Source: Candidatus Sumerlaeales bacterium (GTDB lineage: Bacteria; Sumerlaeota; Sumerlaeia; Sumerlaeales; Sumerlaeaceae). From it: a DNA stretch of 64,000 nucleotides. The DNA is taken from the NCBI GenBank assembly GCA_038243585.1, contig JBBSQY010000006.1:12840-76839 (forward strand), given 5' to 3'. The position numbers were made by a program, and so were the translations under genes. Within the stretch, counting starts at the first letter, position 1. Every line of letters begins with the position of its first letter. Positions 19,175 to 63,052 of the stretch are shown here, in pieces. The notes under the pieces are model-generated. The model searched no databases, was not told where the DNA came from, and was given only the letters and a program-made list of their open reading frames with translations.

Positions 19175-19524
19175 TCGAGACCTCCCCTCAGCCAGATGTA
19201 GGCTAATCCTCCGGATAAAAACCCGATAAATATCATTACTTTTACGAAGCCGTCCCACCCAAGATCTCGCACTGCAGTTCCATACGCATACAGGAAGGCG
19301 ACTTCTACATCAAACAGGAGAAAAAATATGGCGACGAGATAATAGGGGATAGATGTGCGCACATGCGCGCCCCCTGTGGGTGCAATACCGGACTCATATG
19401 GTGTGTCTTTGACTTTTGTATGGGTCGCTTTGCCTAAAAGGCGGCTTAGGCCAATAATAATAAAGGCCATCCCAATTATCAGAAACGTATATATTAGAAG
19501 TTCAAACACCTGGTTCCAATTCAA
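19120..19524 (-). CDS. nuoA: NADH-quinone oxidoreductase subunit A
   Basis: 134-aa three-TM protein ([19 protein letters not shown]) as the first gene of the operon. Its 3' end overlaps nuoB by 55 nt. Confidence 0.9.
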
Positions 19525-21739: not shown

Positions 21740-21769
21740 CAAAAAAATCCTCAGATTGATTAATTGGAA

Positions 21770-21813
21770 ATAAAAAAATCGGTGGTTAAGAGCGTGCTCG
21801 TCAACCACCGATT
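21770..21813 (-). terminator. Rho-independent terminator after gcvPB
   Basis: 11-bp inverted repeat AATCGGTGGTT/AACCACCGATT (21777-21787/21803-21813). It is followed by a run of 7 T on the minus strand, about 30 nt after the gcvPB stop. Confidence 0.7.
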
Positions 21814-36226: not shown

Positions 36227-38434
36227 ATGGAAGCAGCTGATGTTTCAAACCAGGCCCTTTTGACTCTGGTGACCGCTGTTTCCGCAGGAACTTTTCTTAT
36301 GGCGGTGGCTCAACGGGTTGGCATTCCGGCCATAGTTTTGCTATTAGGCGGTGGGATACTTCTCGGACCCGAGGTCTTTAATATCATACAGCCGGCATCG
36401 TTAGGTCCAGTTTTAATGCCGCTTGTATCTTTAGCCGTAGGTCTCATATTATTTGAGGCGGGAATGACGCTGGACTTCGCCGGCTATAAAACTGCCTCAA
36501 AAGTAATACAGCGGCTTTTAACCATTGGGACTTTGATTACCTGGGTTGGAACCACCGCTGCGATCTACTATATAATTGGGACCCAAATAGAAACAGCCCT
36601 TCTTTCGGCCAGTCTTGTGATTGTAACAGGGCCCACCGTAATCCTACCGCTGTTAAAACGGATCAAAGTCATTCCACGAGTCCATCATATTCTCCAGTGG
36701 GAAGGGGTTTTGATAGACCCAGTTGGGGTATTTGTCGCGATTTTATGTTTTGAGTTCTTAACCAGCGGTAGCGGTATGGCCGCCGCCACTGATTTTGGAC
36801 TAAGAGTCGTCGTAGGGGTCGGTGTAGGCTTATTCGGGGGTTTTGTTACCTATTACATCTTAAAAAAGCGCTGGGCACCGGAACATTTGGTAGGCGTGGC
36901 AACCCTTGGTTGTGCGGCATTTACCTTTGGACTTTCAGAAATGCTGATAGGCGAAGCCGGCCTTTTATCAGCAGTTATTGCAGGCTTCGTACCTGCGATT
37001 CTCAAACCTATTGATCTAAAACGAGTCAAAGATTTTAAAGCAGAAGTCGCTGATCTACTTATCGCCGTGCTTTTTATGGTGCTGGCGAGCCGCCTGGAGT
37101 TAGTCCAGTTTTTAGAATTCGGGTGGCGTGGGTGGCTGGTGGTCGCAGTGGTTATGGTTGTCGTTCGCCCGGTAAACATTCTTGTCTGTACCGCTGGGCA
37201 AGGGCTGCCATGGCGTGAAAAGGCGTTTTTGAGCTGGCTTGCTCCCCGGGGGATTGTAGCCGCGTCTATGGCTTCTCTTTTCAGAATCATGCTCGAAGAT
37301 AATCCGATGTTTAAAGATCCAGCATTTGTAGAAACTTTTACGTATTCGGTTATCATTACCACAATCGTCATCGAGGGGCTACTGGCGAACCGGGTAGCAA
37401 TTCTCTTGGGTCTGAAACGTCCGGAGGCGACTGGCTGGCTCATTGTTGGTGCGCATGATTTCTCAAGACGTCTGGCGACTTTTCTTATGAAATCCGGCTT
37501 GCCCGTTGTTGTGATCGATTCCAACATGAGAGCAGTTAAAGCTTTAACATCTAGATCAAACATACAGGCATATCAACGGGACGCCCGGGATCCGGCAATC
37601 TTTGAAGATGAAAAAATTATGGGCTTGGGAAACGTTATTGCTTTAACCGACAATGAAGACTTGAACCTCGTAATTTGCAACCGGCTGTCTGAGGTTACGG
37701 GGAGAGACAATGTCTATGCTTGGGTATCCGGCGCAAGCGGCAATCCATTGGAATCGGAAAACGCCAATATCGTCTGGTCTAATCTGCCTAAACCCTCAAT
37801 GCTAAGCGCAGAAATACGACAATACGAGAGTCGCTTTTTCCAACTGGACGGTAATGCAGAACTTCCGTTCGACAGCCTTGTTCTCGGTGCAGTTAGTGAA
37901 AATAAAGTGGAAATTTACCCTGAAAATCCAGACACTCTCCCCGGAGAGGGTGCTACACAAATGGTTGTGGTACGAAGCAGCAATCATTTAAAACGCGGCT
38001 TATCTATGGGTTTAGCTATCGACGTATCAGGCAATAACCTGTCTTCTGCCTTGAACTCCGCACTTGATCTTGTGCTGCTCAAATACCCGAATCTTCCGAA
38101 GGAACAGTTAATTACGGAAATTACTGCAAGAGAGCGAGAGTTTCCCACGGTTCTAGGACATGGAGTAGCTGTTCCTCATGTGTTTACCCGGCACATTAGC
38201 AACCGCATCTGTTGCATCATACGCAGCCCGGATGGGATCACGTTTGGTAATGGCGATTCTTCCGAACAGGTGCATCTGATGTTCCTCGTGATTAGCCCAT
38301 CTGGAGATCCCGTCGGACATCTTGCAATGATGGCGGAAATAGCTAACCTCATAAGCCATGTAGAGATGAGAGCGCGTTTGCTTGGGGCGGAAGACGCCGC
38401 GGAAATTACTCAAGTAATTGGTGAAGAGCAATAA
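36227..38434 (+). CDS. Cation/H+ antiporter (CPA1/NhaP-like) fused to TrkA-N/RCK-like and PTS EIIA (type 2/Ntr-like) domains
   Basis: About 400 aa of polytopic Na_H-exchanger-like membrane domain. A Rossmann-like segment follows (GWLIVGAHDFSRRLATFLMKSGLPVVVIDSN). The C-terminal EIIA-2 signature is GHGVAVPHV with a His. Confidence 0.75.
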   Translation: MEAADVSNQALLTLVTAVSAGTFLMAVAQRVGIPAIVLLLGGGILLGPEVFNIIQPASLGPVLMPLVSLAVGLILFEAGMTLDFAGYKTASKVIQRLLTIGTLITWVGTTAAIYYIIGTQIETALLSASLVIVTGPTVILPLLKRIKVIPRVHHILQWEGVLIDPVGVFVAILCFEFLTSGSGMAAATDFGLRVVVGVGVGLFGGFVTYYILKKRWAPEHLVGVATLGCAAFTFGLSEMLIGEAGLLSAVIAGFVPAILKPIDLKRVKDFKAEVADLLIAVLFMVLASRLELVQFLEFGWRGWLVVAVVMVVVRPVNILVCTAGQGLPWREKAFLSWLAPRGIVAASMASLFRIMLEDNPMFKDPAFVETFTYSVIITTIVIEGLLANRVAILLGLKRPEATGWLIVGAHDFSRRLATFLMKSGLPVVVIDSNMRAVKALTSRSNIQAYQRDARDPAIFEDEKIMGLGNVIALTDNEDLNLVICNRLSEVTGRDNVYAWVSGASGNPLESENANIVWSNLPKPSMLSAEIRQYESRFFQLDGNAELPFDSLVLGAVSENKVEIYPENPDTLPGEGATQMVVVRSSNHLKRGLSMGLAIDVSGNNLSSALNSALDLVLLKYPNLPKEQLITEITAREREFPTVLGHGVAVPHVFTRHISNRICCIIRSPDGITFGNGDSSEQVHLMFLVISPSGDPVGHLAMMAEIANLISHVEMRARLLGAEDAAEITQVIGEEQ

Positions 38435-44851: not shown

Positions 44852-47473
44852 CTACATTTGCTTGAGCACAGCTTTCATCAGGTTCGTACGCTGAAAGCTG
44901 TCTGGTATTAATGATAATGGAAACCCAAGCAAGATGACTTCACCCTCCGAGGATGTTGGTCGGGTCAGCGTTGCAGCGCTTCCGGCACTTACCCCACTGC
45001 TATATTTCATCAATTCAATGCTTCTGCCCTGTCGCAACTCTAACCGCGAAGGTGTCGTATCTGCCTTTTGCCAGAAATTGGGCCTCACTGCCAGTGAAAG
45101 TGATACACTTGTAGGAAAGAACCGGTCGTCCGTGCTGGCAATGGCCGAATTTGCGACGCCTGAATCAGCTTTCGAAACTCCCAGAACGTCTGACAGAAAG
45201 CTGCGATTACGGCCGCCCTCTTGATAGAGATTTGCGGCAAGTCCACTGCCAGATAAATACAGTTTTCCGCTTCTATTTAAAAAGCTGCGAAGCTGGTTTT
45301 GTATTTTCTCAGATAGAATTGGCTTTTCGGGATTCTGCGTTTCTGAGGTGACAAATAGTTGTTTATACGATTTCCAGTCAACGAGTCCGTCTTCGAAAGC
45401 CGCGCTGTCGGCACCGTCAAAAGCCTGTCCCGCAGCAACGAGGGCAAACGCTTCCGCTGCACCGGATGGTTCCTCCATTGCATACAGCGCCCGTACCCGC
45501 TCCGTCTGGGCCGTAGCCTTATAAGGTCCACCGGGCTGGATTCCCAAATTGTAAGGTATATTAGTAGACTTATCCAGCGAAGTGTGCACTGGCACAATTA
45601 TGCTTTTCTTTGATGAACCTTTTTTGCCCGGTAAACCAACGGCAATGGTTTGAGATGGAAATGACTCGCCACCTGCGTTTAGTGCGGTTACTCTAATAAA
45701 AGTAACTCCTCCGCTGGTGAGGGGGTCAACAGTCAAACCTTCCACCGTCGCACCTGCGGCAACTCCGCCGTCAAATCCATAACCGTCCGGAGACCTGTAC
45801 ACCCTGAATTCCCTCGCCGGATCACCACTAAATTCGCTTTCAGTGCCACCCCGCCATTTTACATTAATTTTGCCATCATCAATTAGCGCGGCGATTGCAA
45901 CTGGCCGTGCAGGCGGCATTGTCACCGCGCTGCCTGGGGATGCAACTTCTGAATACCATTTAAGAACCCCACGCAGAGTAGCCTGCGCCATATGAATGCG
46001 CGATATTGGATTCAACAGGAATTCCACATCTTCGGCGTTATCGTGAAAAGCAGTTTCCACAATAGTTGCGTTCATTTCATTCTGTATATAGTCCCGACGC
46101 AGTTCTCCGAAATTGATTCCGCTGTAAGTATTTCTTTCCCGATCAGACCATTTTGCATCACCTGGCGTCTGCTCGGCTTTCATCTGTATGTTGATTTCCT
46201 GCCCAATAATTTCAGCGAGAGATTCCTGGTATGTGGGACGCTGTCCGGCACTGGCGTTAAATAATGCAATTGCTCCGCGAGCTTTCCCTGTGCTCGCATT
46301 GGAATGAAAGCTTATGAGTATTCTATCGAAAAATGAACCCTCTGTCTCACGATTAACGTGCGCCGCCGCTTTAGGAGGGGATGAGATGGTCGAATTTCCG
46401 TCTTTACCGGTATCAAATATCCGCCTGTCTGTGTTTGCACCGAGAGCTCTTTCGATCCAGTAACTGTCGCCTTCATCTTCACGGAGAAATCCAGAAATAC
46501 CGCCCGGACGGGGCACGTCGCCTTTCCCATTGCCAAAACGGACCGCATCGGCCACGACCACGTTTCCATTATAGGCTTCGTACGGATCTAATACTTTATT
46601 GGTGGTTTCTACGTATCCGGTGTCACCTTTGTTAAAATAATAGGTACCTAACCAAACCCATGTTTTTCCCACTTGCCGCCAGTTCACACGAATTTCTGCG
46701 TGTCCACCAGAGTGAACAATCCGGTATAACTGTTTTGAGCGGTCATCCCCATCTCGTGCCCAGACGTAAACCGGATAATAACCGGATTCAGGTATATAGG
46801 GCCGATAGCGAGCTATAGCTGTCTCCGAAAGGGTGGCTTTCGCAACGGCATAAGGGACAGCATCCGTTCGTGCGCCGTAGAAACGGTCGGAGTCTCCTTT
46901 TCGCCAGTCTCCAAATAGTTCCACCTGGGGCATGGAATTATCCAGAATACGTTCATTCGGCTGGTAATCTATAGGTCGAAACGGAACAATGGTCGCGCCG
47001 GCGTTAAATGCCATATGGGCAAAAATGTGCATTTGGTCCGCATTGCCCATATCTTCCACCATACCGTGAGACAGGCCGCGTTGGGTGTAGTAGTACATTT
47101 CCTCTGAATTATAGGTCCACCCGTGGCCCGCCATGGCAAACATCACTTTACCTGTCAAAGCTCCAGATGGCTGTTGATAAGCGGGACCGGAAAGCAATAA
47201 CTGATCTGCTACGGCTTTAGAATAGGGCCTGGATGGTACCGGTGCGGATTCTATTGGCTCGCGGAAGTCATCAGCCTCAGCCATCTCAACTATCCAATCA
47301 GGCGAACCGGCAGCGGCTTCCTGAATTGTAAGCGATTCGGTTGTTTGTGCATAGCCGGCATTAGGAATCAGAGATGAGCAGAGCGCAATTGCAAACGTGC
47401 TGGTTTGAAAAACGCCTGCAAAAAGGCGAAAAACTTCGCCAGATAAGTTAAAGGTTATCAAGAAGCGGTTCAT
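44852..47473 (-). CDS. Secreted multidomain protein: golvesin-C-like domain + N-acetylmuramoyl-L-alanine amidase (Amidase_3)-like + FN3-like
   Basis: Signal peptide (...PNAGYAQ). A golvesin-like segment follows (GYYPVYVWARDG...WVWLGTYYFNKGDTGYVE). Amidase_3-like blocks are ILISFHSNAS..ARG and IVETAFHDNAEDVEFL, and an FN3-like segment is KWRGG...FRVYRSPDGYGF. Confidence 0.6.
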   Translation of the reverse strand: MNRFLITFNLSGEVFRLFAGVFQTSTFAIALCSSLIPNAGYAQTTESLTIQEAAAGSPDWIVEMAEADDFREPIESAPVPSRPYSKAVADQLLLSGPAYQQPSGALTGKVMFAMAGHGWTYNSEEMYYYTQRGLSHGMVEDMGNADQMHIFAHMAFNAGATIVPFRPIDYQPNERILDNSMPQVELFGDWRKGDSDRFYGARTDAVPYAVAKATLSETAIARYRPYIPESGYYPVYVWARDGDDRSKQLYRIVHSGGHAEIRVNWRQVGKTWVWLGTYYFNKGDTGYVETTNKVLDPYEAYNGNVVVADAVRFGNGKGDVPRPGGISGFLREDEGDSYWIERALGANTDRRIFDTGKDGNSTISSPPKAAAHVNRETEGSFFDRILISFHSNASTGKARGAIALFNASAGQRPTYQESLAEIIGQEINIQMKAEQTPGDAKWSDRERNTYSGINFGELRRDYIQNEMNATIVETAFHDNAEDVEFLLNPISRIHMAQATLRGVLKWYSEVASPGSAVTMPPARPVAIAALIDDGKINVKWRGGTESEFSGDPAREFRVYRSPDGYGFDGGVAAGATVEGLTVDPLTSGGVTFIRVTALNAGGESFPSQTIAVGLPGKKGSSKKSIIVPVHTSLDKSTNIPYNLGIQPGGPYKATAQTERVRALYAMEEPSGAAEAFALVAAGQAFDGADSAAFEDGLVDWKSYKQLFVTSETQNPEKPILSEKIQNQLRSFLNRSGKLYLSGSGLAANLYQEGGRNRSFLSDVLGVSKADSGVANSAIASTDDRFFPTSVSLSLAVRPNFWQKADTTPSRLELRQGRSIELMKYSSGVSAGSAATLTRPTSSEGEVILLGFPLSLIPDSFQRTNLMKAVLKQM

Positions 47474-47567
47474 TTAAAAAGGGTCTTAAACAGATTTGCC
47501 AGTGACAATGAAAATCGGCAATAAGAGTCCTCTCTGCAAACGAGAAACAAAACAGGCTAAATTTATA

Positions 47568-50126
47568 ATGACTTATTTTTACCGTAGAACAGGCTTCATC
47601 CCAATGCTCGCACATCTGATCTTTAATATCTACTTGTCCTATTTCGGCGCCGCGCCAATCACATGCGCAGAACCCTTTAAATTAGACGCGCCCATTATCG
47701 CGGTACCCGTTGGGCTTACGACCACCCGTCAGCCCCGTATTGAGTGGCGGTCTGTCGCCAGTGACAGTTATCAGGTTCTCGTCACAGCAGAAGAGACGAC
47801 TGCCAGTCAAATCTTATGGGATTCCGGCATCGTCGAAAGCGATGACAAATGGACAACGGCCGTACCGCAACTGCCGGTCAATTCGACACTATACACCCAT
47901 GTTCGAGTAAAGACCAAACAGCGATGGACAAACTGGAGCCCCCGTAGCGTCCCGTTTCGTATTCAGCCAGTTCCCCAAGCAGCAGGGGATATAATTACCT
48001 ATGATCTAAGCTATTCCAGAAAGTTACCCGCACCCGAAGCCTTTGGCCATGCACATTTGGTTAGCGTTCTTCAGGGTATTGTCAATCGCGACCAGCCACA
48101 GCTATTTGTCAATTTCGTGAGAGCGAAACGCTTACCTGACGGGGTAGATAATTACTGGCTGAATCGTTTGCAAGAGCCTGAAGGATGGCTTGCAAAGAAA
48201 TCATTGGTACCGGAGGATGAAATTCTGGCGTTGGTGAACCGATTTCGATCTTCAATAGATGGAGTTGTGATTTGGGATCCCGAGGTTAACGCGACGTCCA
48301 ATATAGCTTCTACGGTAGCCGGCGCAGACAACTTGCTTCCAGTCAGATACGATCCCTCCCCAGGATCTTTTTATACTAGGCTTGTCACCAGCGGCCCACA
48401 ACTCCCTGTACGGCTTAATCTTGTGGGAAAGTTCACCGGCACAGGAACAATACCAGACACAGCCAGAGCCTCCAGTGGAAGCAGGAAATGCGACGCCTAC
48501 ATTTGGGCTGTTGAAAATTATCTGAAAACAAAACGCTCAAACCCGCAAAAACTGGGTTATTATCTCGATGCCTATTGGATAAGCGAGCCCGGTGGCGACG
48601 CTCAGCTTCATACGTTGACGAATCACGACTATTTTGTGGCTAACAAAGGGTTCTTCTGGGACTTGTCACCTTGGTCCGATGAGACCCCCGTGGACGATCC
48701 CGATCAGCCCCTTGGAGCCGACTTAAATACTTTAAAAGAAATATACGTTTCGTCTTACGAAGCAATGGCGGGTGCCAAATTTAGTCATACGGGTGGATTT
48801 ACGCCTTGGCATCTAAAATATACAAACTCTCACGGGGCGGGAGGCACCCATGGTGCTGTGGAAACCGAATGGGAAACCGCTCGGATATTATCCGCTTATA
48901 ACTCGTACCTCGATGCCGACGCCATCGGGATTTGCGCAATGGCCAATGCTTCCCTGTATCAGCACATGCCATTGCCCGAGCGATACTCCCAGCCTGTGCC
49001 ACCTATGCCAGAAGAGCTCCAGCGACAGGGGCTGTTAAGCCAGCGAAATTTGGTGACAACTGCGACATACATCCTGCATTATGTGGGAGACTATGACTCG
49101 GCGGCTTGGGCTACAAGCATGCTCCCAGGTTTTTGGGACGCTGGCGACAGAGGATCTGTAAATATGGGCTGGGCGATTAATCCTAATCTGAGCGAACGCG
49201 CTCCCATGTTTTTTGAATATGCCTACAGAACACGGACGGCACACGACCACTTCATGGCAGGGGATTCAGGAGCAGGGTACGTTAATCCCACTCAGTTGCT
49301 ATCGCCTCGCCGACCATCTGGTTTGCCTTCCGCCGTAGAGGCATGGCAGCATCATTGCCGGCAATTTTACCAGGCGTTCGGAATGAACTTTACCGGGTTT
49401 GTCATTAATGGCCTTTCTGGAGTCATTGGGCCGGAGGCGGAACGCATTCATACGGCTTTCTCTCCAAACGGCATTGTTATTCAGGAGGCGGTAAACCAGG
49501 GCGACGTTCACCTGGAAGGTACAATGCCGGTGTTTGTTCACAATTCTGATCTTAGTGTCAATGCGCCGGAGGCCGCGGATACGGTTCACTCTCTCGCGCA
49601 ACCAGACACCCTGCAATTCCTCATGTTCCGAAGCATCCTACGGCCTGTTTCGTATTATGCTACCCTGAACAACTTGCTGCGCAGTAGTCGTCCCGATTTG
49701 AATTATGTCTTCTGTAGCCCAGACGTTTTTTCATATTTAGCACGGGTACATTTAGGTTCAGACAATAACCAAATGGCCAGCTACCTTTTCGACACTATTC
49801 CCCAGGACATGCAGGCAGGAAACTCCTACCCGGTCCAGATAGCGATCCGGAACGATGGGTGGGACACATGGAAGGGCGGAAAAGGCGGAACTCACGGACT
49901 CCTGGTCGAAATTTCCGTAAACGATAAGTCTACATCACCCACCTTTTATCCCATGCCCCGCGACGTTCCACCCGGTGACTCGATCGTCATAAAAGTCGAA
50001 ATTACGGCATGCGACAGGGGTGGCTCGCAAACGATTAATTATGAAATGGCCAGTAACAACGGCGCGAATAAGTTTTCCAGCAGTGGTGACCCCGCTTTTG
50101 TGCAAAAGCTAAAGGTCGAAATATAA
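47568..50126 (+). CDS. Secreted GxGYxYP-family putative glycoside hydrolase with a C-terminal Ig/NBR1-like domain
   Basis: N-terminal hydrophobic signal and the family-naming motif region DSGAGYVNP. The C-terminal beta-sandwich-like segment is YPVQIAIRNDGWDTW. ATG 47568 is preferred over the ORF-track start at 47496. Confidence 0.5.
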   Translation: MTYFYRRTGFIPMLAHLIFNIYLSYFGAAPITCAEPFKLDAPIIAVPVGLTTTRQPRIEWRSVASDSYQVLVTAEETTASQILWDSGIVESDDKWTTAVPQLPVNSTLYTHVRVKTKQRWTNWSPRSVPFRIQPVPQAAGDIITYDLSYSRKLPAPEAFGHAHLVSVLQGIVNRDQPQLFVNFVRAKRLPDGVDNYWLNRLQEPEGWLAKKSLVPEDEILALVNRFRSSIDGVVIWDPEVNATSNIASTVAGADNLLPVRYDPSPGSFYTRLVTSGPQLPVRLNLVGKFTGTGTIPDTARASSGSRKCDAYIWAVENYLKTKRSNPQKLGYYLDAYWISEPGGDAQLHTLTNHDYFVANKGFFWDLSPWSDETPVDDPDQPLGADLNTLKEIYVSSYEAMAGAKFSHTGGFTPWHLKYTNSHGAGGTHGAVETEWETARILSAYNSYLDADAIGICAMANASLYQHMPLPERYSQPVPPMPEELQRQGLLSQRNLVTTATYILHYVGDYDSAAWATSMLPGFWDAGDRGSVNMGWAINPNLSERAPMFFEYAYRTRTAHDHFMAGDSGAGYVNPTQLLSPRRPSGLPSAVEAWQHHCRQFYQAFGMNFTGFVINGLSGVIGPEAERIHTAFSPNGIVIQEAVNQGDVHLEGTMPVFVHNSDLSVNAPEAADTVHSLAQPDTLQFLMFRSILRPVSYYATLNNLLRSSRPDLNYVFCSPDVFSYLARVHLGSDNNQMASYLFDTIPQDMQAGNSYPVQIAIRNDGWDTWKGGKGGTHGLLVEISVNDKSTSPTFYPMPRDVPPGDSIVIKVEITACDRGGSQTINYEMASNNGANKFSSSGDPAFVQKLKVEI

Positions 50127-54448: not shown

Positions 54449-55645
54449 ATGTCTATTTTCGCAGCGCCCACTGACGCACCTCGGCGCGACCTCTCGTCCA
54501 AGCTTAATTCTAAAGTGTTAGCGATGCCGCCAAGCGGTATTCGGCGCTTCTTCGAGCTCGTTATTGGCATGGATGATGTCATCAGCCTTGGGGTGGGGGA
54601 GCCGGATTTTGCGACGCCACGGTGTATTCGCGATAAGGCAATTAAAGATATTGAAGCCGGACGGACCACATATACCAGCAACTACGGACTTATGGAATTG
54701 CGTGAGGGCCTTTCAGATTGGCTGCAACGGACCTATGACATAAGTTATGACCCGGCATCCGAGATTCTGATCACGGTAGGCGCCAGTGAAGGTCTGGACG
54801 TCGCACTACGTGCCATTGTTAACCCAGGCGACGAGGTAATTGTCCTTCAGCCATGCTATGTCTCTTATGGTCCGGCGGTTGAACTCGCTGGCGGAGTGCC
54901 CGTTTTGTTCCCAACGTTCCAGAAGGATGGGTTCCGGGCTAACCTTGAAGAGCTGCAAAAAGCTGTGACGCCGCGAACTAAGGCAATCATGGTAAATTAT
55001 CCGAACAACCCGGCCGGCAATACTTTTGACAGGGAAGACTTGGAACAATTAGCAGAGTTTGTTAAAAAAAATGACCTGCTGATAATCAGTGATGAAATCT
55101 ACGCTGAACTGACGTATGATAAAAAACACGTGGCATTGTCTTCTCTGCCGGGGATGAAGGATTACGTTATTCTTGTAAGCGGCTTCAGTAAGAGTCATGC
55201 TATGACAGGCTGGCGGCTCGGTTATACCTGTGCGCCCCCGGAAATTACTGCAGCAATGGTTAAAATACATCAATATACAATCCTGTGCGCTCCTACGCTA
55301 AGCCAGTATGCGGCAATAGAAGCCTTAAAGCATTGCGACGACGCAGTTTCCGGTATGCGTGAAGAGTATCAGAAGCGTCGTGACCTGATAGTGCAAGGTT
55401 TTAATAACCTGGGCCTAAAGACATTGGTGCCAGAGGGCGCGTTTTATGCGTTCGCAGATATATCCGGAACCGGGATGTCGAGCGAAGATTTCTGCATGCG
55501 TCTGCTCGCCGAACATAAGGTCGCGGTAGTGCCCGGCACCGCTTTTGGGGCATGCGGTGAGGGGTTCATACGCGCAAGCTACGCATCAAGTTTGGAGCGG
55601 ATCGAGCTGGCTCTTGACAAGATGGAAATTTATTTAGCGACATAA
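54449..55645 (+). CDS. Class I/II PLP-dependent aminotransferase (aspartate aminotransferase-like)
   Basis: GEPDFATP, NYPNNPAGNTF and SGFSKSHAMTGWRLGY (PLP lysine). ATG 54449 is preferred over the TTG at 54413. Confidence 0.88.
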   Translation: MSIFAAPTDAPRRDLSSKLNSKVLAMPPSGIRRFFELVIGMDDVISLGVGEPDFATPRCIRDKAIKDIEAGRTTYTSNYGLMELREGLSDWLQRTYDISYDPASEILITVGASEGLDVALRAIVNPGDEVIVLQPCYVSYGPAVELAGGVPVLFPTFQKDGFRANLEELQKAVTPRTKAIMVNYPNNPAGNTFDREDLEQLAEFVKKNDLLIISDEIYAELTYDKKHVALSSLPGMKDYVILVSGFSKSHAMTGWRLGYTCAPPEITAAMVKIHQYTILCAPTLSQYAAIEALKHCDDAVSGMREEYQKRRDLIVQGFNNLGLKTLVPEGAFYAFADISGTGMSSEDFCMRLLAEHKVAVVPGTAFGACGEGFIRASYASSLERIELALDKMEIYLAT

Positions 55646-55750
55646 ATCGAAAAGTAGCATAGGCCTCCCGCCTGTGTATTTCCTGAGCGGCACGTTATCC
55701 AACCAGGAAACAATGATAGGAATTACCCAGCCAGTGCTTCTGCCACTTGA

Positions 55751-56038
55751 TTACCAGTAGTAGTAACTTCCGTACTGTCCACCGCCGTTATAGCTATAGC
55801 CCAGGCCATAATACGATCCGTCTCCATGGTACGTTTCAGGAAAATAGCTGCTATTGTATGACCAATAGGGGTCATAGCGAACCCCTGTCGAATAATGGTA
55901 CGGATAACCATAATAATGGCGTACCCCGTAGGCTTGGCGAAGCTGTTCATACTGAGGGCTGAAGTATTGAGCGGACGCGGCCCCGGCAAAGCTGGACAGA
56001 ACTAACAGTACGACGATGCGGCAAGAAGTTGTGGCCAT
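55751..56038 (-). CDS. Small secreted Tyr/Gly-rich low-complexity protein
   Basis: Signal peptide MATTSCRIVVLLVLSSFAGAASA/Q, then a ~72-aa mature region with about 21 Tyr (YYGYPYHY, GSYYGLGYSYNGGGQYGSYYYW). I chose it over the overlapping same-strand ORF 55723-55989, which lacks a signal peptide. Confidence 0.5.
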   Translation of the reverse strand: MATTSCRIVVLLVLSSFAGAASAQYFSPQYEQLRQAYGVRHYYGYPYHYSTGVRYDPYWSYNSSYFPETYHGDGSYYGLGYSYNGGGQYGSYYYW

Positions 56039-56082
56039 TATAGATCCTTTAAGGTGGTAATGTGGCTAATTGAACTTCGGAA

Positions 56083-57639
56083 CTACTTCTGGCTACGCAT
56101 TCTTCGGGCCAGATTACTCACAAACGGATTGTATTGGTCATTAGCGGCCTGCGTTTCTTGACTTGCGACCGCCTGACCTGCCACCCGAACCGAAGTGCCA
56201 ATAAGAGGTCGTGCCTCAGCGTTAACTTCAGTTTCCAGAAGCGATTCTCCAAGAAAGCTAACAGCGGTAGTTGGTGATAGTCCTTTCGCGTTTTGAACAA
56301 GAACCAGTTCAGCCCTTGATATTTCTTCAATCGCCTTAAGGCTGACGGTGGCCAGTTTGCCAGATCCGCGGACTTGCGAATTGGAAGCGGAGACTTCATA
56401 AACAATAATACCTTTAGTATTATCCGCGAAATTAAAGCGGTAATAGTCAAAAGTAAAATTGTTCCTCGCCATCGCATCGCGGATATTTATACCGCGGGTT
56501 ACAACGTTTCCTGCATCGCTGTCCACAACCTGCAGAATAGTAGGATCAAACTGCAAATAAAGGCGGACGCGATCAAGGCGTTTTTCACCCGGGTTTTTTA
56601 GAAAAATATCCACATCAAATGATTCTCCAGCTCGTACCGAAGTCGAAGACGGACGCAGATCAAAAGTCACATCAAGTCCAGGCCGATCGTCGCCAGCCGA
56701 CGCAGTCGGAGACCCGATCAGTACGCCATCATCCAGTCGAGTTAAAGTAGGTTTAGTTCGCGGTCCTATGACTTGGACCATAGATTTTATTACCCCATCA
56801 GATGACCCGGGCATGGTGCCCAGCAAGTTGACGTCGTTTAAAAAAAGGCCTGTGGTATGACGATTTTCGCCAAATTCATAAGAAATTACTGCTCCGTCCG
56901 TCTGCTCCAACGCTTCCCAAACTATCGAGATCAGTTCCTTTTGAGCGAATTGTCGCGGCTCTTTCAGGGCCGCACGGACATAAATTGTTCCTTCATCCGG
57001 GTTGAACTCATAATCAATTTTGTTTTTAACATAAGGGTCGAGGGCTGAGTGATCCAACGCCAGGGGATTCAGAATATGACGAGGGTACTTAATAAGCAGA
57101 GAAACCTCATCGATTTCCCCCTCTTTTGTTTCCGCATGAATTTCCGTATTAAATCGCTCCCCAACCGATACAATGCTGTCCATTGGATGGAACAACAAGA
57201 TCGTCCGTGATTCGCTGCGGGCAGATTGTGGCGACTGAGCCGCGGGCGTTGCATCTGCCGCCTGAATGGGTGGAGTCATACGCGCGTTTTGGACAGGCCC
57301 TGTCGGAAGAGGCTGGCCGGGAACTCCCGCGACCGGAGCTGCTCCTTGTGGGTTGACGGCACCCGGCGCTCCGGGTGGCGCGCCGGGAACTACAGCCGCG
57401 GGTGCGCCTGGAGCCGCCGGTGGCTCGGTTCCCTGTTTCGCCTGCAACGCCTTCTGCTGCTCGTCCCGTCTGGCTTTACTCTCTTCGAGTATTTTTTTAA
57501 TTCGTTCCTGATGTTCCCTAATCCGTTCTTGCCGTGTTTGCTCACCACCAGGTTGTTGCGCCATAGCGCTAATCGGCTGAAAAACAAACACTAAGCTGGC
57601 AAGCATACCCCATATCACTCGCGTCGAGAACATAATCAT
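56083..57639 (-). CDS. Secreted protein: charged coiled-coil + Pro/Ala-rich linker + two cohesin-like beta domains (tentative)
   Basis: The start is set at ATG 57639 (MIMFSTRVIWGMLASLVFVFQPISAMAQ signal peptide). The longer ORF from 57807 would overlap the upstream methyltransferase gene. The domain assignment is by pattern only. Confidence 0.5.
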   Translation of the reverse strand: MIMFSTRVIWGMLASLVFVFQPISAMAQQPGGEQTRQERIREHQERIKKILEESKARRDEQQKALQAKQGTEPPAAPGAPAAVVPGAPPGAPGAVNPQGAAPVAGVPGQPLPTGPVQNARMTPPIQAADATPAAQSPQSARSESRTILLFHPMDSIVSVGERFNTEIHAETKEGEIDEVSLLIKYPRHILNPLALDHSALDPYVKNKIDYEFNPDEGTIYVRAALKEPRQFAQKELISIVWEALEQTDGAVISYEFGENRHTTGLFLNDVNLLGTMPGSSDGVIKSMVQVIGPRTKPTLTRLDDGVLIGSPTASAGDDRPGLDVTFDLRPSSTSVRAGESFDVDIFLKNPGEKRLDRVRLYLQFDPTILQVVDSDAGNVVTRGINIRDAMARNNFTFDYYRFNFADNTKGIIVYEVSASNSQVRGSGKLATVSLKAIEEISRAELVLVQNAKGLSPTTAVSFLGESLLETEVNAEARPLIGTSVRVAGQAVASQETQAANDQYNPFVSNLARRMRSQK

Positions 57640-57694
57640 TGTCCTTCCCCATCCAATACAATGCCCAATCCTGATATTAATAATATGACTGATC

Positions 57695-58294
57695 TCAACG
57701 ATTGTTTGCCAGTAAGCGATCAAAAATAATCGCGGCGGCTGCTCTGACGGATAAATGGTTAAAATCACCAGTCCCAGTAATTGGCTCCAGCACGAAATCC
57801 GCCTCAAGCATCATCTCGGGGTGAAGACCCCACCCTGTGCCAAAAAGGAGCACTATTGGCCCACCTTCATCGGCCATTATTTCTCTTAATTGTTTAAAAG
57901 TGACAGTATTGGCGTATGTGCGGGCCGATGTCACAATAAACTGGGGCTCCTGATCGCATTCGGCCAATACGTGGTCACTCATTTTCCCAACGTCGGTAAA
58001 ACATTGCGTGATACTGAGGGCATCTTTGCGATTAGAATTATACTTGGATCCCCAACCGCTTTCCCAATGCTCCAGAATTTTGGATACGAGCCAATGTTGG
58101 GCCTCCACCGGCGTAATAAGAAAATATCCATCCAGACCGTAGGTGCGGGCACTCCTGCTTATATCGTGAATGTCCAGGTTGGTAACCGATGTCGATACCA
58201 GCATGCCCTGTTTGTCAATCACAGGGTAATGAAGAAGTGCTGCGTAAATTTTGCGTGGCATGGGAGGAATTGAAATCATGCATTTTTGCACCAT
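57695..58294 (-). CDS. Predicted SAM-dependent RNA methyltransferase (SPOUT-like, Methyltrn_RNA_4-type)
   Basis: The block LLHYPVIDKQGMLVSTSVTNLDIHDISRSARTYGLDGYFLITP and the C-terminal LLFGTGWGL match my recollection of this family. Alternative ATG at 58279. Confidence 0.5.
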   Translation of the reverse strand: MVQKCMISIPPMPRKIYAALLHYPVIDKQGMLVSTSVTNLDIHDISRSARTYGLDGYFLITPVEAQHWLVSKILEHWESGWGSKYNSNRKDALSITQCFTDVGKMSDHVLAECDQEPQFIVTSARTYANTVTFKQLREIMADEGGPIVLLFGTGWGLHPEMMLEADFVLEPITGTGDFNHLSVRAAAAIIFDRLLANNR

Positions 58295-58310
58295 CAAGAT
58301 GAAAATGCAT
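58278..58310. promoter_or_regulatory. 9-bp perfect inverted repeat ATGCATTTT-N15-AAAATGCAT at the methyltransferase/XPB divergent region
   Basis: Read directly from the sequence. It spans the candidate start codons of the methyltransferase gene and lies about 165-190 nt upstream of the XPB start. Confidence 0.25.
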
Positions 58311-58471
58311 TTTTATAAGAGTTCTTAAAACGTGTGATTTTCTTCTGGACTCTTGGAAAACCCATCGTTAAATTCCCATGCTGAGTAACCGTTCAGGGTG
58401 GATAGAAACTGCATAACCTGTTATCTCTGATTCGGTGCAGGAAATATATGAGAGGTTGTTCTTAGCTAGGT

Positions 58472-60262
58472 ATGGGTTATAACCCGGAAAACCCTCTGAT
58501 TGTACAATCAGATATGTCGGTTCTATTGGAAACAATGGGCCCACATTACGAAGATGCACGCGCATTCATCAACCAGTTTGCGGAGTTGACGAAAAGTCCC
58601 GAGTATCTGCACACCTATACGATCACGCCGCTCTCCATTTGGAATGCCGCGTCTGCGGGAATTACATTGGAGGTGATTTCGGCTGGACTTGAAAAGTTCG
58701 CGAAGTACGATTTGCCGGGCAATGTTTTTACCGAGATTCGTGAGCTGCTGGGCCGTTTCGGCAGCATTCAGCTTTTAAAAAATTCAGAAACCGGGCAGCT
58801 CTACCTTAAATGCCGAGATTTGCCGGTAGCCGAAGAAGTCCTTGCCGCGCCCGCCGTCCGGGAGCATTTGGAGAAGCGTGTATCGGACTTGGAAATTCTG
58901 GTTAGTCCCGATGCCCGCGGCCGTCTTAAACATGCCCTTATTAAGCAGGGCTATCCAGTTGAAGACCTTGCTGGGTTTATTGAAGGAGATGCTCTGGAAG
59001 TTGATTTCAGAGATGTTACACTTAAAGGTCGAAAGCTTAAGATTCGGGGCTATCAACAGGAAGCCGCAGAGATGTTCTATTGCGGCGGGCGCGCCACCGG
59101 CGGCAGCGGTGTGTTAGTGCTGCCATGCGGCGCAGGGAAAACCGTCATTGGCATTGCCGCAATGACCCTGGTGAAGCAAAAAACCCTCATCCTGACAACA
59201 AACGTAACAGCCCTCCGCCAATGGATGAACGAAATCATAGACAAAACGACAATCGAAGCTAAGAACGTCGGGGAATATAGTGGCGAAAATAAAAACATCC
59301 GGGACGTCACAGTCTCTACCTATCAGATTCTAACTTATAGAGACCGTAAAACAGATCGTTTTCCTCACATGGACCTTTTTGGAGCGCACAACTGGGGCCT
59401 AATTGTCTATGACGAAGTGCATATGTTGCCTGCTCCCGTATTTCGTGCAGTCGCGGATATACAGGCGAAAAGACGACTTGGCCTAACTGCCACCTTGGTG
59501 CGCGAAGATGGCAAAGAAGACGAAGTTTTTTCCCTGATCGGCCCCAAGCGCTACGACAAGCCCTGGAAAGAACTAGAGAGCCAGGGCTGGATTGCGGAAG
59601 CTATATGTACGGAAATTCGGGTCCCCATGGATAACGATTTGAAATTGCAATACGCGGTTGCGGACCTTCGGGCAAAATATCGCCTAAGCATGGAAAACCC
59701 TGCAAAACTTACCGTAGTCCAGCAACTCCTGGATCGGCACAAAGGTGATCGCGTGCTTGTAATTGGGCAATATCTGGGGCAATTGGCCGCGATACAGGAA
59801 ATGATTAAAGCGCCAATAATCACAGGTCAGACACCGAACAATGAGCGGGACGAGATCTACGGCAAGTTTAAAACCGGAGAAATCCAAGTTCTGATTGTCT
59901 CAAAAGTAGCCAATTTCGCCATTGATTTGCCCGATGCTAACGTAGCGATCCAGGTATCCGGCACATATCGTTCAAGGCAGGAAGAGACACAGCGGCTGGG
60001 ACGGGTGCTACGCCCAAAAGCCGATGGCAGCAGCGCATGGTTCTATTCTGTGGTAACAAAAGACAGCAAAGATCAGGAGTGTGCGAAAAAACGATCCATG
60101 TTTCTCACAGAGCAGGGGTATAGGTACTGTATTCAGGTACTTAACGATGAAGACATTAACATCACTCCTGTTATTGACGTTGATCTTGATTCAAAGGAAG
60201 CTCTGCATCGAGCAGCTGAAACAACAACTGAGTCGACTCTAGTAACAATAACCGAAACGTAA
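58472..60262 (+). CDS. xpb: XPB/Ssl2/ERCC3-type SF2 DNA helicase/translocase
   Basis: N-terminal XPB-type domain (PLIVQSDMSVLLE...), Walker A LPCGAGKT, DEVH box, and motif III followed by the RED motif (TATLVREDGKE). Helicase C lobe with QRLGRVLR. Confidence 0.9.
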   Translation: MGYNPENPLIVQSDMSVLLETMGPHYEDARAFINQFAELTKSPEYLHTYTITPLSIWNAASAGITLEVISAGLEKFAKYDLPGNVFTEIRELLGRFGSIQLLKNSETGQLYLKCRDLPVAEEVLAAPAVREHLEKRVSDLEILVSPDARGRLKHALIKQGYPVEDLAGFIEGDALEVDFRDVTLKGRKLKIRGYQQEAAEMFYCGGRATGGSGVLVLPCGAGKTVIGIAAMTLVKQKTLILTTNVTALRQWMNEIIDKTTIEAKNVGEYSGENKNIRDVTVSTYQILTYRDRKTDRFPHMDLFGAHNWGLIVYDEVHMLPAPVFRAVADIQAKRRLGLTATLVREDGKEDEVFSLIGPKRYDKPWKELESQGWIAEAICTEIRVPMDNDLKLQYAVADLRAKYRLSMENPAKLTVVQQLLDRHKGDRVLVIGQYLGQLAAIQEMIKAPIITGQTPNNERDEIYGKFKTGEIQVLIVSKVANFAIDLPDANVAIQVSGTYRSRQEETQRLGRVLRPKADGSSAWFYSVVTKDSKDQECAKKRSMFLTEQGYRYCIQVLNDEDINITPVIDVDLDSKEALHRAAETTTESTLVTITET

Positions 60263-60268: not shown

Positions 60269-63052
60269 ATGCAGACAGACAGATACGCCCTTTCCGAATC
60301 CTTAAAGCTTCGCGCCTTGCTTCGCCAGCTGCCAGACGAACAACTATCCCGTATAAGCAGAAACTGGGGATTCCGGGAAAGTGACAAAAGTGGTAGCGCG
60401 GAAAAGATTTCCGGGGAGCATTTGGCCGATTTCCTGTATCCCCGCATGAACTCCGAAACTTACTTTCAGCAGATATGGGAACGGTTAAGTGAAGAAGAGC
60501 GAGACGCACTTAAGTTTTTAGGGATTCATGGCGGAGTATTGGCCAGAGAAGAACTGAACCAGCGCGTATTTAAAGGGGCGGTGCGAACTTTTCGCAAAGC
60601 TTCAGACAGTCTCATAGACAAAGGCCTCGTTTATGAAGCTACCGAGCTTCCAGGGATGAGTCGCTCTAGCGAACAGTGGTTTTTTGTTCCAGAAGTTTTT
60701 CTTACATTTTTACAGCTGCCAATACATTGTCAGGGGTTTTTAGGCAATTTGCTGCGTCTGCTAGGGACGGAGGAACTGTCAGCACTTGCGAAGCGGGTGT
60801 TGAAGCTGGAAGATCACCAGTTGCCCTCGCCATTAGAGCTACGGTACAACGTCAGAAAGTTTCTGATAGAGCCAGATAATTTAAGAAACACTGTTGAAGA
60901 GCTGCCCGAAACGGAAAGAGAAGTTTTCGAAGCGTTGCTCGGCCGAAAAGGCCAATGTCTTTACCGGGAGCTGCTTGACGCGACAGGCGCTAGAAAAGTG
61001 GACCATAGCAAAGCCGAGTTCATCAACCAGTTGGCTCAAACAACGGGACTAGTGTTTACTGTCTCTGAAGGCCATAACAAATACATGAACTCGCTAATGG
61101 TTCCGCGGGATCTATATTACGTTATTACCCGACGCTATCAGCCAGACACTCGGTCCCTCCAACGCATCGAATCCATGGCAGGCATCCGGCGGGAGGCTCC
61201 GAAGCTGCCACCCTCGGACAACTCCGCAGACATACTCCGAGACATGGCTGTTTTTGCTGCTACAATGGATATGTTTCAGCCAAAAAAACTTACAACCGGC
61301 GGTATCAACAAGGCTGATTTAAAAAAGATGGCCACGATCTTTCCTTTAAGTAAGCAGGCGAGATATTCTACTTTTTTGTCCACATATCTAATCAACTCTG
61401 ATAGCTTTGTAGATATTCAAGGGGCCTGGCGGGCATCGGAAAAGCTGCCGGCTCAACTTAGTAGTCCCGAGCAGACGTTCCTTTTTCTTTTTCAGTGGTG
61501 GTTGAAAACAACCACTTGGAATGAGTTTTTTATCGATGGGGTTGCGCCAGCAGGTGATCGGCCTCCGCAGCTATGGACAAACGTTGTTGAACTGCGCCAG
61601 GTAATTCTGAGCGCTTTGCATCAAGTTCAAAAAGACAGATGGGTCAGCTACTCCAATTTTTGGGAAACAGTTGTCCCTCTTCTGGATTCGCGACTTCCCA
61701 AAGGCAGCGGCGGCGGTGGCTACGGTGGAATTCTCTCCGTAAAAGACGCGGTCGGCGTTATTATACGGGAATCCCTGTTTTTTCTGGGAGTCACAGTCAT
61801 CGCCAATACGAACCCTGACGATGATGCGGCTGCCAAATCACGCTCCGTTGTAAAGGCAAAGGGTAAAGAGCCGGTAAACGAGCCGCCCGCGGATTTTCAA
61901 TTCAAGCTTTCCCCTATGGGTCGCAAGCTTGCTGGGTCTGATGCAATTAATCTCACTTTCAATATCGAAAGTGAAGACAATCCCGTAGTCGGAAGTTTTC
62001 AGCAAGGAGCACAATGGATCATCGTACAACCAAACCTCGAAATTGTGGCGCCGCGTGATCTGGGTTTAGACTCGGTTTTCCAACTCGCGCGTTTATGTAA
62101 GGTAAAGAACATCGATGTAATGACCACCCTAGAACTGAGTCGGGAAAGCTTGCGACCTGTTCTCGATCGCGGCGCTGATACTGAAAGCATTTTGCAATTT
62201 CTGACCGGCTTGAGCAGAATGGAAATGCCTCCAGGCATCGCACAATTAATAGAAGATTGCAGCAACAAGCACGGAGAAATCAGACTCGGCAGCAGCAGTG
62301 GGTATATTATTGCGGAAAACAATACCGTTCTGGAATCGATATGGCGACATCCCAAGCTTACGCCGTTTATTAAAGAAAGATATGGCGACAATGTCCTGTT
62401 GCTGGCAAGCGAAACAGACCTCAACAAAGTGGCAAAGGAGCTCCGCAGCCATGGTCACAGTCCGCAAATGGAAACCGGCGCAGTTCACGCAAACCATGAC
62501 AATCGCTTCCATCTGGCTCTAACGGAAATAGAAATGCAGGACGTCATAGCTGCCGTTCGCTTTCTATCCTACGTGGAAAAAGTTCTTGAGGCAGATCTTA
62601 CAGACGGGCGTGCCGCAACCATGGCCCACCGGCTACAGCCTGATTCAACCGGCTTTCTAGTAAGTGGGACTGGAGTTGAAACTCGGTCCCGTCAGTTATT
62701 CCGGCGTTTCGAAGCGGCATTTAACAAACACGACGAGGACATTGTCGAAAAATATAAAACTCAGGTTTCTAAACTCGTATCCCGATCTACAACATCCCGG
62801 GGGCCTAGTAAATATCAGTATAAGGGATCAAATCCCGCGGTTGATAAGGAAGACATTGAGCAGCTTATCGTTTTTGCGCAAGAGTATGAGCTGGAAGTTG
62901 AACTGCTCTATCTGAAGCAAAGCGAACAGGAAACTCGCGTAGTAGTCTTGCCCCGGGGTGTCGAAGGGGAGCGCATCTACGCCCATAACAGCGTGACCGA
63001 CACTGATGCGGTTTACTCCCTTAACAGGATTTTGCGCGCCAGGCTCCTGTAA
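60269..63052 (+). CDS. XPB-associated 927-aa protein: repeated winged-helix-like modules + XPB-N-terminal-like domain + small C-terminal beta-rich domain; function unknown
   Basis: It starts 6 nt after the xpb stop. Internal repeat: LSEEERDALKFLGIHGGVLAREEL versus LPETEREVFEALLGRKGQCLYRELL. Residues ~583-732 align by eye with XPB residues ~8-163. I recognised no catalytic motif. Confidence 0.7.
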   Translation: MQTDRYALSESLKLRALLRQLPDEQLSRISRNWGFRESDKSGSAEKISGEHLADFLYPRMNSETYFQQIWERLSEEERDALKFLGIHGGVLAREELNQRVFKGAVRTFRKASDSLIDKGLVYEATELPGMSRSSEQWFFVPEVFLTFLQLPIHCQGFLGNLLRLLGTEELSALAKRVLKLEDHQLPSPLELRYNVRKFLIEPDNLRNTVEELPETEREVFEALLGRKGQCLYRELLDATGARKVDHSKAEFINQLAQTTGLVFTVSEGHNKYMNSLMVPRDLYYVITRRYQPDTRSLQRIESMAGIRREAPKLPPSDNSADILRDMAVFAATMDMFQPKKLTTGGINKADLKKMATIFPLSKQARYSTFLSTYLINSDSFVDIQGAWRASEKLPAQLSSPEQTFLFLFQWWLKTTTWNEFFIDGVAPAGDRPPQLWTNVVELRQVILSALHQVQKDRWVSYSNFWETVVPLLDSRLPKGSGGGGYGGILSVKDAVGVIIRESLFFLGVTVIANTNPDDDAAAKSRSVVKAKGKEPVNEPPADFQFKLSPMGRKLAGSDAINLTFNIESEDNPVVGSFQQGAQWIIVQPNLEIVAPRDLGLDSVFQLARLCKVKNIDVMTTLELSRESLRPVLDRGADTESILQFLTGLSRMEMPPGIAQLIEDCSNKHGEIRLGSSSGYIIAENNTVLESIWRHPKLTPFIKERYGDNVLLLASETDLNKVAKELRSHGHSPQMETGAVHANHDNRFHLALTEIEMQDVIAAVRFLSYVEKVLEADLTDGRAATMAHRLQPDSTGFLVSGTGVETRSRQLFRRFEAAFNKHDEDIVEKYKTQVSKLVSRSTTSRGPSKYQYKGSNPAVDKEDIEQLIVFAQEYELEVELLYLKQSEQETRVVVLPRGVEGERIYAHNSVTDTDAVYSLNRILRARLL

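Follow-up and report, generated by a model that had tools for sequence, protein, structure and literature searches.

YRP, a conserved tyrosine-rich small protein family encoded beside a cohesin-dyad gene in Sumerlaeota

The window, that is, the whole 64,000-nucleotide stretch of DNA analysed here (positions 12,840 to 76,839 of the forward strand of contig JBBSQY010000006.1, assembly GCA_038243585.1, Candidatus Sumerlaeales bacterium), carries at 55751..56038 on the minus strand the gene of a small protein of very high tyrosine content, termed YRP (Tyr-rich small protein). YRP constitutes a previously uncharacterised protein family, which in practice is one half of a gene pair with COH, the gene of a putatively secreted cohesin-dyad protein, and in one clade is part of a trio. 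What had been an unnamed hypothetical open reading frame (ORF) thus becomes a well-delimited protein family that marks the lineage and comes with a recognisable partner gene. The family is extremely aromatic, with almost no aliphatic residues, and yet under strict positional constraint, a combination relevant to protein folding and to Tyr-based biomaterials.

The YRP gene, its product and its conservation

The complete coding sequence runs from ATG to TAA (95 codons plus the stop), as judged from the ORF translation and from homologues, with a Shine-Dalgarno-like AAGGA (56045..56049, minus strand) 6 nt 5' of the ATG; its translation of 95 amino acids (aa) is MATTSCRIVVLLVLSSFAGAASAQYFSPQYEQLRQAYGVRHYYGYPYHYSTGVRYDPYWSYNSSYFPETYHGDGSYYGLGYSYNGGGQYGSYYYW. 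Residues 1-23, MATTSCRIVVLLVLSSFAGAASA (55970..56038, minus strand), are predicted to form a Sec/signal peptidase I signal peptide, assigned by eye with the -3/-1 rule: a positive n-region (R7) is followed by a hydrophobic core and by A-S-A as the A-x-A at -3/-1, such that cleavage is expected between AGAASA and QYF. Across the family alignment this segment varies in sequence, keeps its hydrophobicity and ends in [ST]A[SG]A-Q. Since the product reads as carrying such a signal, YRP is predicted to be exported from the cytoplasm, its mature form being a polypeptide of 72 residues and 8.8 kDa with 29% Tyr.

The mature part, QYFSPQYEQLRQAYGVRHYYGYPYHYSTGVRYDPYWSYNSSYFPETYHGDGSYYGLGYSYNGGGQYGSYYYW (55754..55969, minus strand), holds all 21 of the 21 Tyr of the precursor (21/72), together with 11 Gly (15%), 8 Ser (11%), 4 Pro and 2 Trp, one of which is the C-terminal residue; Lys and Cys are absent and only 4 residues are aliphatic. 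The calculated mass is 8.76 kDa, the pI 6.3, the grand average of hydropathy (GRAVY) -1.19 and the aromaticity 0.35. Tyr accounts for 2.9% of the residues in window ORFs of 150 aa or more; on a binomial model with that background, 21 or more Tyr among 72 residues would arise with a probability of about 1e-15, and Tyr stays at or below 11% in every other window ORF of at least 60 aa. An earlier reading from the sequence only had described a signal peptide in front of a mature part of about 72 residues with about 21 Tyr and a terminal W, a description that agrees with the n/h/c layout and with the count just given; all three motifs that it had singled out (YYGYPYHY, SYYGLGYSY and GGGQYGSYYYW) are present in the translation.

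Among 5.8 billion proteins searched, YRP homologues form 35 clusters, 92-115 aa long and with E-values from 3.5e-42 to 2.6e-10; none of the 35 carries a Pfam domain, and one is named as a Candidatus Sumerlaeaceae metagenome-assembled genome (MAG). In all, the homologue clusters number about 45, with lengths of 88-120 aa throughout. The family alignments (A1 and A2) contain 22 invariant columns and 14 further ones at 90% or above, so that 36 of the 72 mature positions are at least 90% identical, where composition alone predicts 12% identity. The alignment consensus reads …YGLRHYYGYPYxYSxGxRYDPYWSYNSSYFPETYxGDGSYYGLGYSGYxGxGWYGSYYYW, with the conserved core R-x-Y-x-x-YPY-x-x-S-x-G-x-RYDPYWSY-x-SSYFP-x-x-Y-x-GDGSYYG[LI]GYS…YG-x-Y-x-YW. 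Positions at or above 90% are not restricted to aromatic residues and include R17, P23, S27, G29, R31, D33, P34, P44 and G49-D50-G51-S52 (mature numbering).

At the codon level, compared over nine lineages, the mature core combines a proportion of synonymous differences (pS) of 0.6-1.0, that is, saturation, with a proportion of nonsynonymous differences (pN) of 0.05-0.29, and pN of the signal peptide is 0.5-0.75; only pS and pN are given because, with synonymous sites saturated, dS cannot be estimated for most pairs. These sequence comparisons show YRP to be a real protein-coding gene under strong purifying selection, a signature that serves in place of the expression evidence called for in the sequence-only reading. 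The opposite view, namely that YRP is a chance or antisense artefact or that an overlapping frame encodes the real product, takes its appeal from the fact that Tyr-codon-rich DNA leaves several frames open at the locus (55723-55989, minus; 55747-55962, plus). It is exceedingly improbable and is refuted by the codon-level comparisons: amino-acid identity across the nine lineages is 0.74 in the Tyr-rich frame vs 0.34 and 0.41 in the two other sense frames, the codon-aligned antisense frame contains 9-21 stops, and nucleotide identity falls from 0.81 and 0.79 at the first and second codon positions to 0.40 at the third. Furthermore, an Rfam scan of 55000-58500 gave no match, and the region is therefore not a known RNA. 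The frame of 55723-55989, named in the sequence-only reading as a competitor that might turn out to be the conserved one, is open in most homologues, yet it is only 34% identical as against 74% for the Tyr-rich frame; since it is not conserved, the ORF is best regarded as a by-product of the Tyr codon composition.

YRP matches no Pfam family at E-values up to 0.01 (none at up to 10 for mature YRP together with three relatives), no NCBIfam family at up to 1 and no PDB entry in a sequence-profile search at up to 10. An exhaustive, word-index-free search of 1.84 billion representative proteins with a hidden Markov model (HMM) recovered 10 clusters, all with E below 1e-10 and all members of the YRP family, with nothing between 1e-10 and 1e-3. 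That no named bacterial family exists for the protein, as had been stated from the sequence, is borne out by these Pfam, NCBIfam, PDB-sequence and HMM searches. In 185,579 species-representative genomes three YRP loci were confirmed, all in Sumerlaeota/BRC1 MAGs, and a metagenome scan added seven further contigs. Among the records that carry an organism name (three MAGs, all Sumerlaeota, BRC1), YRP is found only in this uncultivated candidate phylum. The literature on Sumerlaeota yielded a genomics paper on the phylum without mention of cohesin, tyrosine or outer membrane, and nothing pertinent came from a literature search on Tyr-rich secreted proteins or dityrosine proteins of bacteria.

As to habitat, one contig with the complete helicase-MT-COH-YRP block (L001, ENA ERZ4567617, 58 kb; MT is the methyltransferase gene described below) derives from a sample labelled as Hadza/Nepal stool fibre. 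A block of the Sumerlaeota type thus also occurs in metagenomes labelled as human gut, for which a resident organism, a dietary or soil source and contamination are all possible.

The neighbour COH and the linkage of the two genes

COH (56083..57639, minus strand) encodes a protein of 518 aa whose stop lies 44 nt before the YRP start. The mechanically called ORF (56083-57807, minus strand) is longer, with 574 aa from a TTG at 57807, and shares 113 nt with the 3' end of the methyltransferase gene. The ATG at 57639 has GGGGAAGGA 5' of it and is followed by a signal-peptide-like segment, MIMFSTRVIWGMLASLVFVFQPISAMA, ending before QQ; judged from these sequence features, this ATG and not the TTG is most likely the start. 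The homologues, 26 clusters, are all 470-530 aa long, and COH shows the same lineage restriction as YRP.

The predicted signal peptide (aa 1-27, ending …ISAMA before Q28) precedes a conserved charged helix at aa 36-69 (57433..57534, minus strand; …REERIREHQERIKKILEES…), a putative coiled coil modelled as a helix by AlphaFold2 with a predicted local distance difference test score (pLDDT) of about 85; R36, R39, I40, H43, R46, I47, I50 and E53 are nearly invariant in alignment A3. A Pro/Ala/Gly-rich linker (aa 70-142; 57214..57432, minus strand), predicted to be disordered from its sequence and from a pLDDT below 50 at 69-142, leads to two predicted beta-sandwiches: the first cohesin-like module at aa 146-309 (56713..57204, minus strand; pLDDT 85-94), and the second at aa 324-487 (56179..56670, minus strand; pLDDT mostly 80-90), which is recognised by Pfam. 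The C-terminal tail bears the nearly invariant motif YNPFxSxLAxRMR, and the mean pLDDT of the whole model, built on a 26-sequence alignment, is 71.

The match to the Pfam Cohesin family PF00963 scores 29.3 bits (cut-off 24.1; E 1.1e-6) at aa 388-498 of the 574-aa ORF, equivalent to aa 332-442 of the 518-aa protein, and the same assignment is precomputed for 25 of the 26 homologues. In a Foldseek search with the whole model, the best-matching PDB entry is 3l8q, a type II cohesin dyad from ScaA of A. cellulolyticus (E 1.1e-14), and the single type II cohesins 5k39, 1qzn, 3fnk and 4fl4 give target-normalised TM-scores of 0.58-0.72. With a profile score above the curated cut-off and a predicted beta-sandwich fold, COH is placed among the cohesins; as modelled, it is a cohesin dyad on a flexible stalk and by its fold a protein-docking scaffold. 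The sequence-only reading had spoken of a secreted, coiled-coil/cohesin-like, co-oriented upstream neighbour, which the signal peptide, the helical segment and the Pfam match uphold and which can now be specified more precisely as a cohesin dyad.

Twelve independent loci offer enough upstream DNA to judge the linkage, and in ten of them YRP is paired with COH, counting one with a small ORF in between (L003) and one with an 800-nt gap (L022); the conservation of the gene pair in relatives, proposed earlier as a check, is thereby confirmed. COH stands directly 5' of YRP in the window and L014 as well as in L001, L005, L009, L011, L013, L017 and L019. Co-location of five further pairs is suggested by COH and YRP clusters whose longest contigs have the same size (140899, 24874, 17465, 25964 and 9103 bp). 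The intergenic gaps measure 27-55 nt, and in L001 the YRP ATG overlaps the COH stop (ATGA), so that AAGGA with its 6-nt spacer, as in the window, lies inside the 3' end of COH.

The co-oriented run begins with the gene of a SAM-dependent RNA methyltransferase, MT (57695..58297, minus strand; Methyltrn_RNA_4, Pfam E 1.2e-72), which is conserved 5' of COH in L001, L003, L005, L011, L013, L017, L019 and L016 and is probably not functionally linked. The order MT-COH-YRP is seen in the window, L014, L001/L002, L003/L004, L005/L006, L011, L013, L017 and L019; in L009 and L022, both COH and YRP are present and the contigs end early. YRP lies at the edge of the conserved block and is normally the last gene of the run behind COH. 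The gene 3' of it varies by lineage (aminotransferase, LuxC, AP_endonuc_2, MgtC or radical SAM), and since this flank differs, YRP stays with COH across rearrangements.

Several observations concern the surroundings of the run. An XPB/ERCC3-type helicase gene (58472-60262, plus strand) followed by the gene of a 927-aa Helicase_C_3 protein (60269-63052, plus strand) is divergent from MT-COH-YRP and syntenic with it in all related Sumerlaeota loci. A radical-SAM-domain gene of the B12-less kind is convergent right after YRP in L009 (1371-2792, minus strand) and L013 (6215-7672, minus strand); it is limited to the most divergent YRP clade (HGW-BRC1-1 type) and absent at this position in other clades. 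Genes resembling lux genes are scattered between the window, with a LuxE-like acyl-protein synthetase gene at 26450-27550 (minus strand), and L001, where a LuxC-like acyl-CoA reductase gene and a gene with a lumazine-binding domain lie immediately 3' of YRP (6332-8274).

A further small Tyr-rich protein, YRP2, is about 100 aa long and predicted to be secreted; its gene lies between COH and YRP in L003 (5601-5903, plus strand), and a 38% identical relative precedes YRP in L018 (419-727, plus strand). The YRP2 family comprises 7 clusters, whose alignment columns are on average 78% identical (…FPYYYTGYYQYGSSPYVVVPN…SPYYY…TRRPWS…DGYHGAYYF); it occupies this place in one Sumerlaeota sub-clade, that of L003, and has no Pfam match. 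Homology between YRP and YRP2 was considered and rejected (hhalign probability 0.3%); the resemblance is one of style, both having a signal peptide, runs of Tyr and a C-terminus of the form G-x-Y-Y-aromatic (…HG-x-YY[FY] in YRP2). The occurrence of YRP2 in the same slot after COH suggests that COH works with small aromatic-rich secreted partners.

Possible roles of YRP

The AlphaFold2 model of the YRP monomer (36-sequence alignment) has a mean pLDDT of 56.8 and no confident fold of the mature part: values fall below 50 at residues 55-64 and 72-95 and in the conserved core, and only a short N-terminal helix is predicted. As the underlying alignment is shallow (hhalign Neff of about 2), pLDDT is weak evidence for disorder. 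Taken together with the very high conservation, the lack of a confident monomer fold makes YRP look like a folding-on-assembly sequence, as far as the model goes. An internal duplication, either dockerin-like or a hairpin repeat, was rejected (hhalign of the two halves, E 0.48), as was a periodicity of aromatic residues (Ar) as a signature like that of outer-membrane proteins or SurA, with 7 Ar-x-Ar and 8 Ar-Ar as compared with shuffle means of 8.2 and 8.3.

The reading tentatively preferred, because it is the most economical mechanism, is that YRP is a small aromatic partner subunit which folds or assembles on the COH cohesin-dyad envelope protein. Both proteins would be exported; the coiled coil would oligomerise COH, and the spacer would hold the cohesin dyad off its point of anchorage in the envelope. 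YRP, without a stable fold of its own, would fold or assemble onto the cohesin modules or be displayed by them, acting as a non-dockerin cohesin ligand or as a co-polymerising subunit, where the basis for assuming binding is the genetic linkage. What results would be an envelope or surface structure peculiar to the lineage, with much exposed Tyr and Trp, in which the invariant residues (Pro, Gly, Asp, Arg and aromatics) would represent contacts and turns of a specific assembly and not generic stickiness. A more far-reaching version is doubtful: YRP would be the first free-standing, non-dockerin, Tyr-rich cohesin ligand and would form with COH a two-gene, Sumerlaeota-specific envelope or surface assembly system, extended by YRP2 in some lineages, the Tyr-dense surface of which could then be oxidatively cross-linked or adhesive. 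An assembly of YRP and COH would offer a first look at the cell-envelope and surface architecture of a phylum without cultured representatives.

A number of points weigh against such a partnership. YRP is found away from COH in L007 (after AP_endonuc_2) and L008 (after alpha-amylase genes), and the two most distant COH homologues (L015 and L016, 27-37% identity) have no YRP downstream. The adjacency may in part reflect shared ancestry within a narrow lineage, because the whole helicase-helicase-MT-COH-YRP block is syntenic, and a promoter/terminator scan gave no signal above the shuffle background, so that no operon is defined. With respect to the ligand, YRP has no match to Pfam Dockerin_1 at E-values up to 10; the comparison of its halves reveals none of the duplicated segments of about 22 residues that mark a dockerin; and D-x-N-x-D-G or D/N-rich, EF-hand-like calcium loops are absent, with only one GDGS and one RYDP. 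Finally, the low AlphaFold2 confidence may reflect the shallow alignment only, and not real disorder.

The partnership with COH has to be set against four other accounts of what the exported protein does, which are not all mutually exclusive: COH could, for instance, anchor a YRP polymer. It is unlikely, if conceivable, that YRP self-assembles after export (as an amyloid-like or kinked-beta structure or a coacervate), or is dityrosine cross-linked by oxidases, to yield a matrix, coat or adhesive for which COH would be at most an anchor and not required. Segments of the GYSGY/SYYG type are similar to the aromatic-Gly-Ser stretches found in FUS-like low-complexity domains, and in plant extensins it is at Tyr-x-Tyr motifs that cross-linking takes place. 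The bulk composition (rich in Tyr, Gly and Ser, free of Lys and Cys, hydrophilic), the lack of a confident monomer fold and the occurrence of YRP without adjoining COH in L007 and L008 would all suit self-assembly, and the Tyr-rich spore-coat proteins CotC and CotU, which form high-mass assemblies, offer a parallel (PMC7944565). Low-complexity materials, however, keep their composition and drift in sequence, so that a compositional Tyr/Gly material, as proposed in the sequence-only reading, fits YRP poorly: half of the mature positions are nearly fixed while synonymous sites are saturated, internal repeats are lacking, and the spacing of Ar-x-Ar and Ar-Ar is as in shuffled sequences. That Pro, Gly, Asp and Arg are so strictly conserved position by position speaks against a purely compositional "sticky" low-complexity protein. 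YRP is, moreover, short and present as a single copy per locus as far as seen, and across the loci examined no oxidase, peroxidase, tyrosinase, laccase or amyloid-export gene is conserved nearby. An improbable relative of the COH partnership casts YRP as an aromatic glycan-binding peptide, directed at an insoluble polysaccharide such as chitin and presented on the surface by COH, the two making up a minimal device for adhesion in the manner of a cellulosome. Carbohydrate-binding modules (CBMs) bind polysaccharide through planar aromatic faces, and a member of the Sumerlaeota has reportedly been described as a chitin degrader. The cohesin fold of COH and the very high exposed aromatic content of YRP accord with this idea, as do the GxGYxYP and Golvesin/amidase genes of the window and the alpha-amylase, GH57, GH116 and PMT genes of L005, L007 and L008; these glycan genes, however, are not shared by the different loci, several have the look of enzymes for intracellular glycogen, and Pfam reveals no CBM similarity even at E-values up to 10.

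Attention may also be directed to the invariant C-terminus of YRP, …G-x-Y-x-Y-W-COOH, which could mimic the beta-signal or Y-x-F end of outer-membrane proteins and dock on the beta-barrel assembly machinery (BAM), a periplasmic PDZ protease or a chaperone, thereby signalling to envelope biogenesis or modulating it. The bacterial beta-signal has the form G-x-x-aromatic-x-aromatic-COOH; the last eight residues of YRP follow x-Y-G-x-Ar-Ar-Y-Ar in 34 of 36 family members, and the unrelated YRP2 ends alike. Such an ending is easily produced by composition, however, since at 27% Tyr and 15% Gly a few percent of random arrangements would show it, and Ar-x-Ar is not enriched. With a whole core of 55 residues conserved and not the tail alone, and with no BAM or Deg genes linked, this mimicry is distinctly improbable; nor is YRP a barrel itself, as a mature part of 72 aa with 4 aliphatic residues and the GRAVY given above has neither the length nor the hydrophobicity to provide enough amphipathic strands of about 10 residues with aliphatic side chains towards the lipid, and no barrel appears in the AlphaFold2 model. 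That YRP is the precursor of a ribosomally synthesized and post-translationally modified peptide (RiPP), for example of the darobactin type, or of a secreted signalling or antimicrobial peptide is very improbable. Its small size and the radical-SAM gene adjoining it in L009 and L013 might point in this direction, but this gene is convergent and belongs to one clade only, the N-terminus reads as a classical Sec signal rather than as the leader of a RiPP, genes for modifying enzymes, transporters or immunity are not among the conserved neighbours, and conservation extends over the entire 72-aa mature part.

Genomic surroundings and comparison with known systems

The window as a whole reads as ordinary chromosomal DNA, with a nuo operon, glycine-cleavage genes, RuvB, PdxJ and an O-antigen-ligase-like gene. 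The nuo operon (5243-19258) looks complete and includes a fused NuoC-NuoD (16860-18623, minus strand; 30-kDa and 49-kDa domains in a 587-aa ORF). Directly downstream of it, a 709-aa fusion of a calcineurin-like metallophosphoesterase with a PQQ_2/BamB-like beta-propeller is encoded (19679-21808, minus strand). Another fusion, of 735 aa (36227-38434, plus strand), joins a Na+/H+ exchanger to TrkA_N and to EIIA-2 of the phosphotransferase system (PTS), an unusual regulatory architecture for a cation antiporter. A divergent pair of large envelope- or glycan-related proteins occupies 44852-47473 (minus strand) and 47496-50126 (plus strand); one of the two combines Golvesin_C with Amidase_3 (N-acetylmuramoyl-L-alanine amidase), and the other is a putative glycoside hydrolase of the GxGYxYP family.

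Among known proteins, the closest compositional analogues of YRP are CotC and CotU of the outer spore coat of Bacillus subtilis, tiny and very Tyr-rich bacterial proteins that assemble into high-mass forms (PMC7944565). Dityrosine is one of three types of cross-link proposed for the spore coat and has been detected in coat proteins other than these two (PMC7944565). Unlike YRP, CotC and CotU lack a signal peptide and reach the coat from the mother cell, and the genome context of the window contains no sporulation genes. Lys and Asp, too, are very abundant in CotC and CotU. YRP differs from them in its predicted Sec signal, its lack of Lys and its richness in Gly, Ser and Pro, and shares no sequence similarity with them.

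Small secreted proteins with 20-30% Tyr are also known from the mussel foot (mfp-3 and mfp-5), where Gly, Asn, Arg and Trp accompany Tyr-x-Tyr and Tyr-Tyr motifs that can be oxidised or cross-linked. Mussel foot proteins and extensins are eukaryotic, depend on 3,4-dihydroxyphenylalanine (DOPA) or peroxidase chemistry and are highly polymorphic or repetitive, such that composition is conserved and positions are not. YRP, in contrast, is non-repetitive with half of its positions nearly invariant, and none of these proteins is homologous to it. With the functional amyloids (curli CsgA/CsgB, Fap, TasA/TapA and the chaplins) YRP has in common a small secreted subunit encoded beside a secreted accessory or anchor protein and, presumably, assembly outside the cell. 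It differs from them in having no imperfect repeats, no Gln/Asn ladders and no Pfam match, and its conserved block consists of an RNA methyltransferase and helicases, without dedicated secretion or nucleator genes.

The closest mechanistic analogue of COH and YRP is provided by the cohesin-dockerin pairs of cellulosomes. Non-cellulosomal cohesin-like modules were reportedly catalogued by Peer et al. in 2009 (FEMS Microbiol Lett 291:1). The window ORFs scanned (64 kb of genome) contain no Dockerin match. As in the cohesin-dockerin system, COH has two predicted cohesin modules, YRP with its roughly 70 residues is of dockerin size, and both proteins are predicted to be exported; unlike a dockerin, YRP is free-standing and not a module on an enzyme, and 29% of it is Tyr. 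Should COH truly bind YRP, it would follow that cohesins, the classic docking modules of cellulosomes, can pair with a protein that has nothing of a dockerin.

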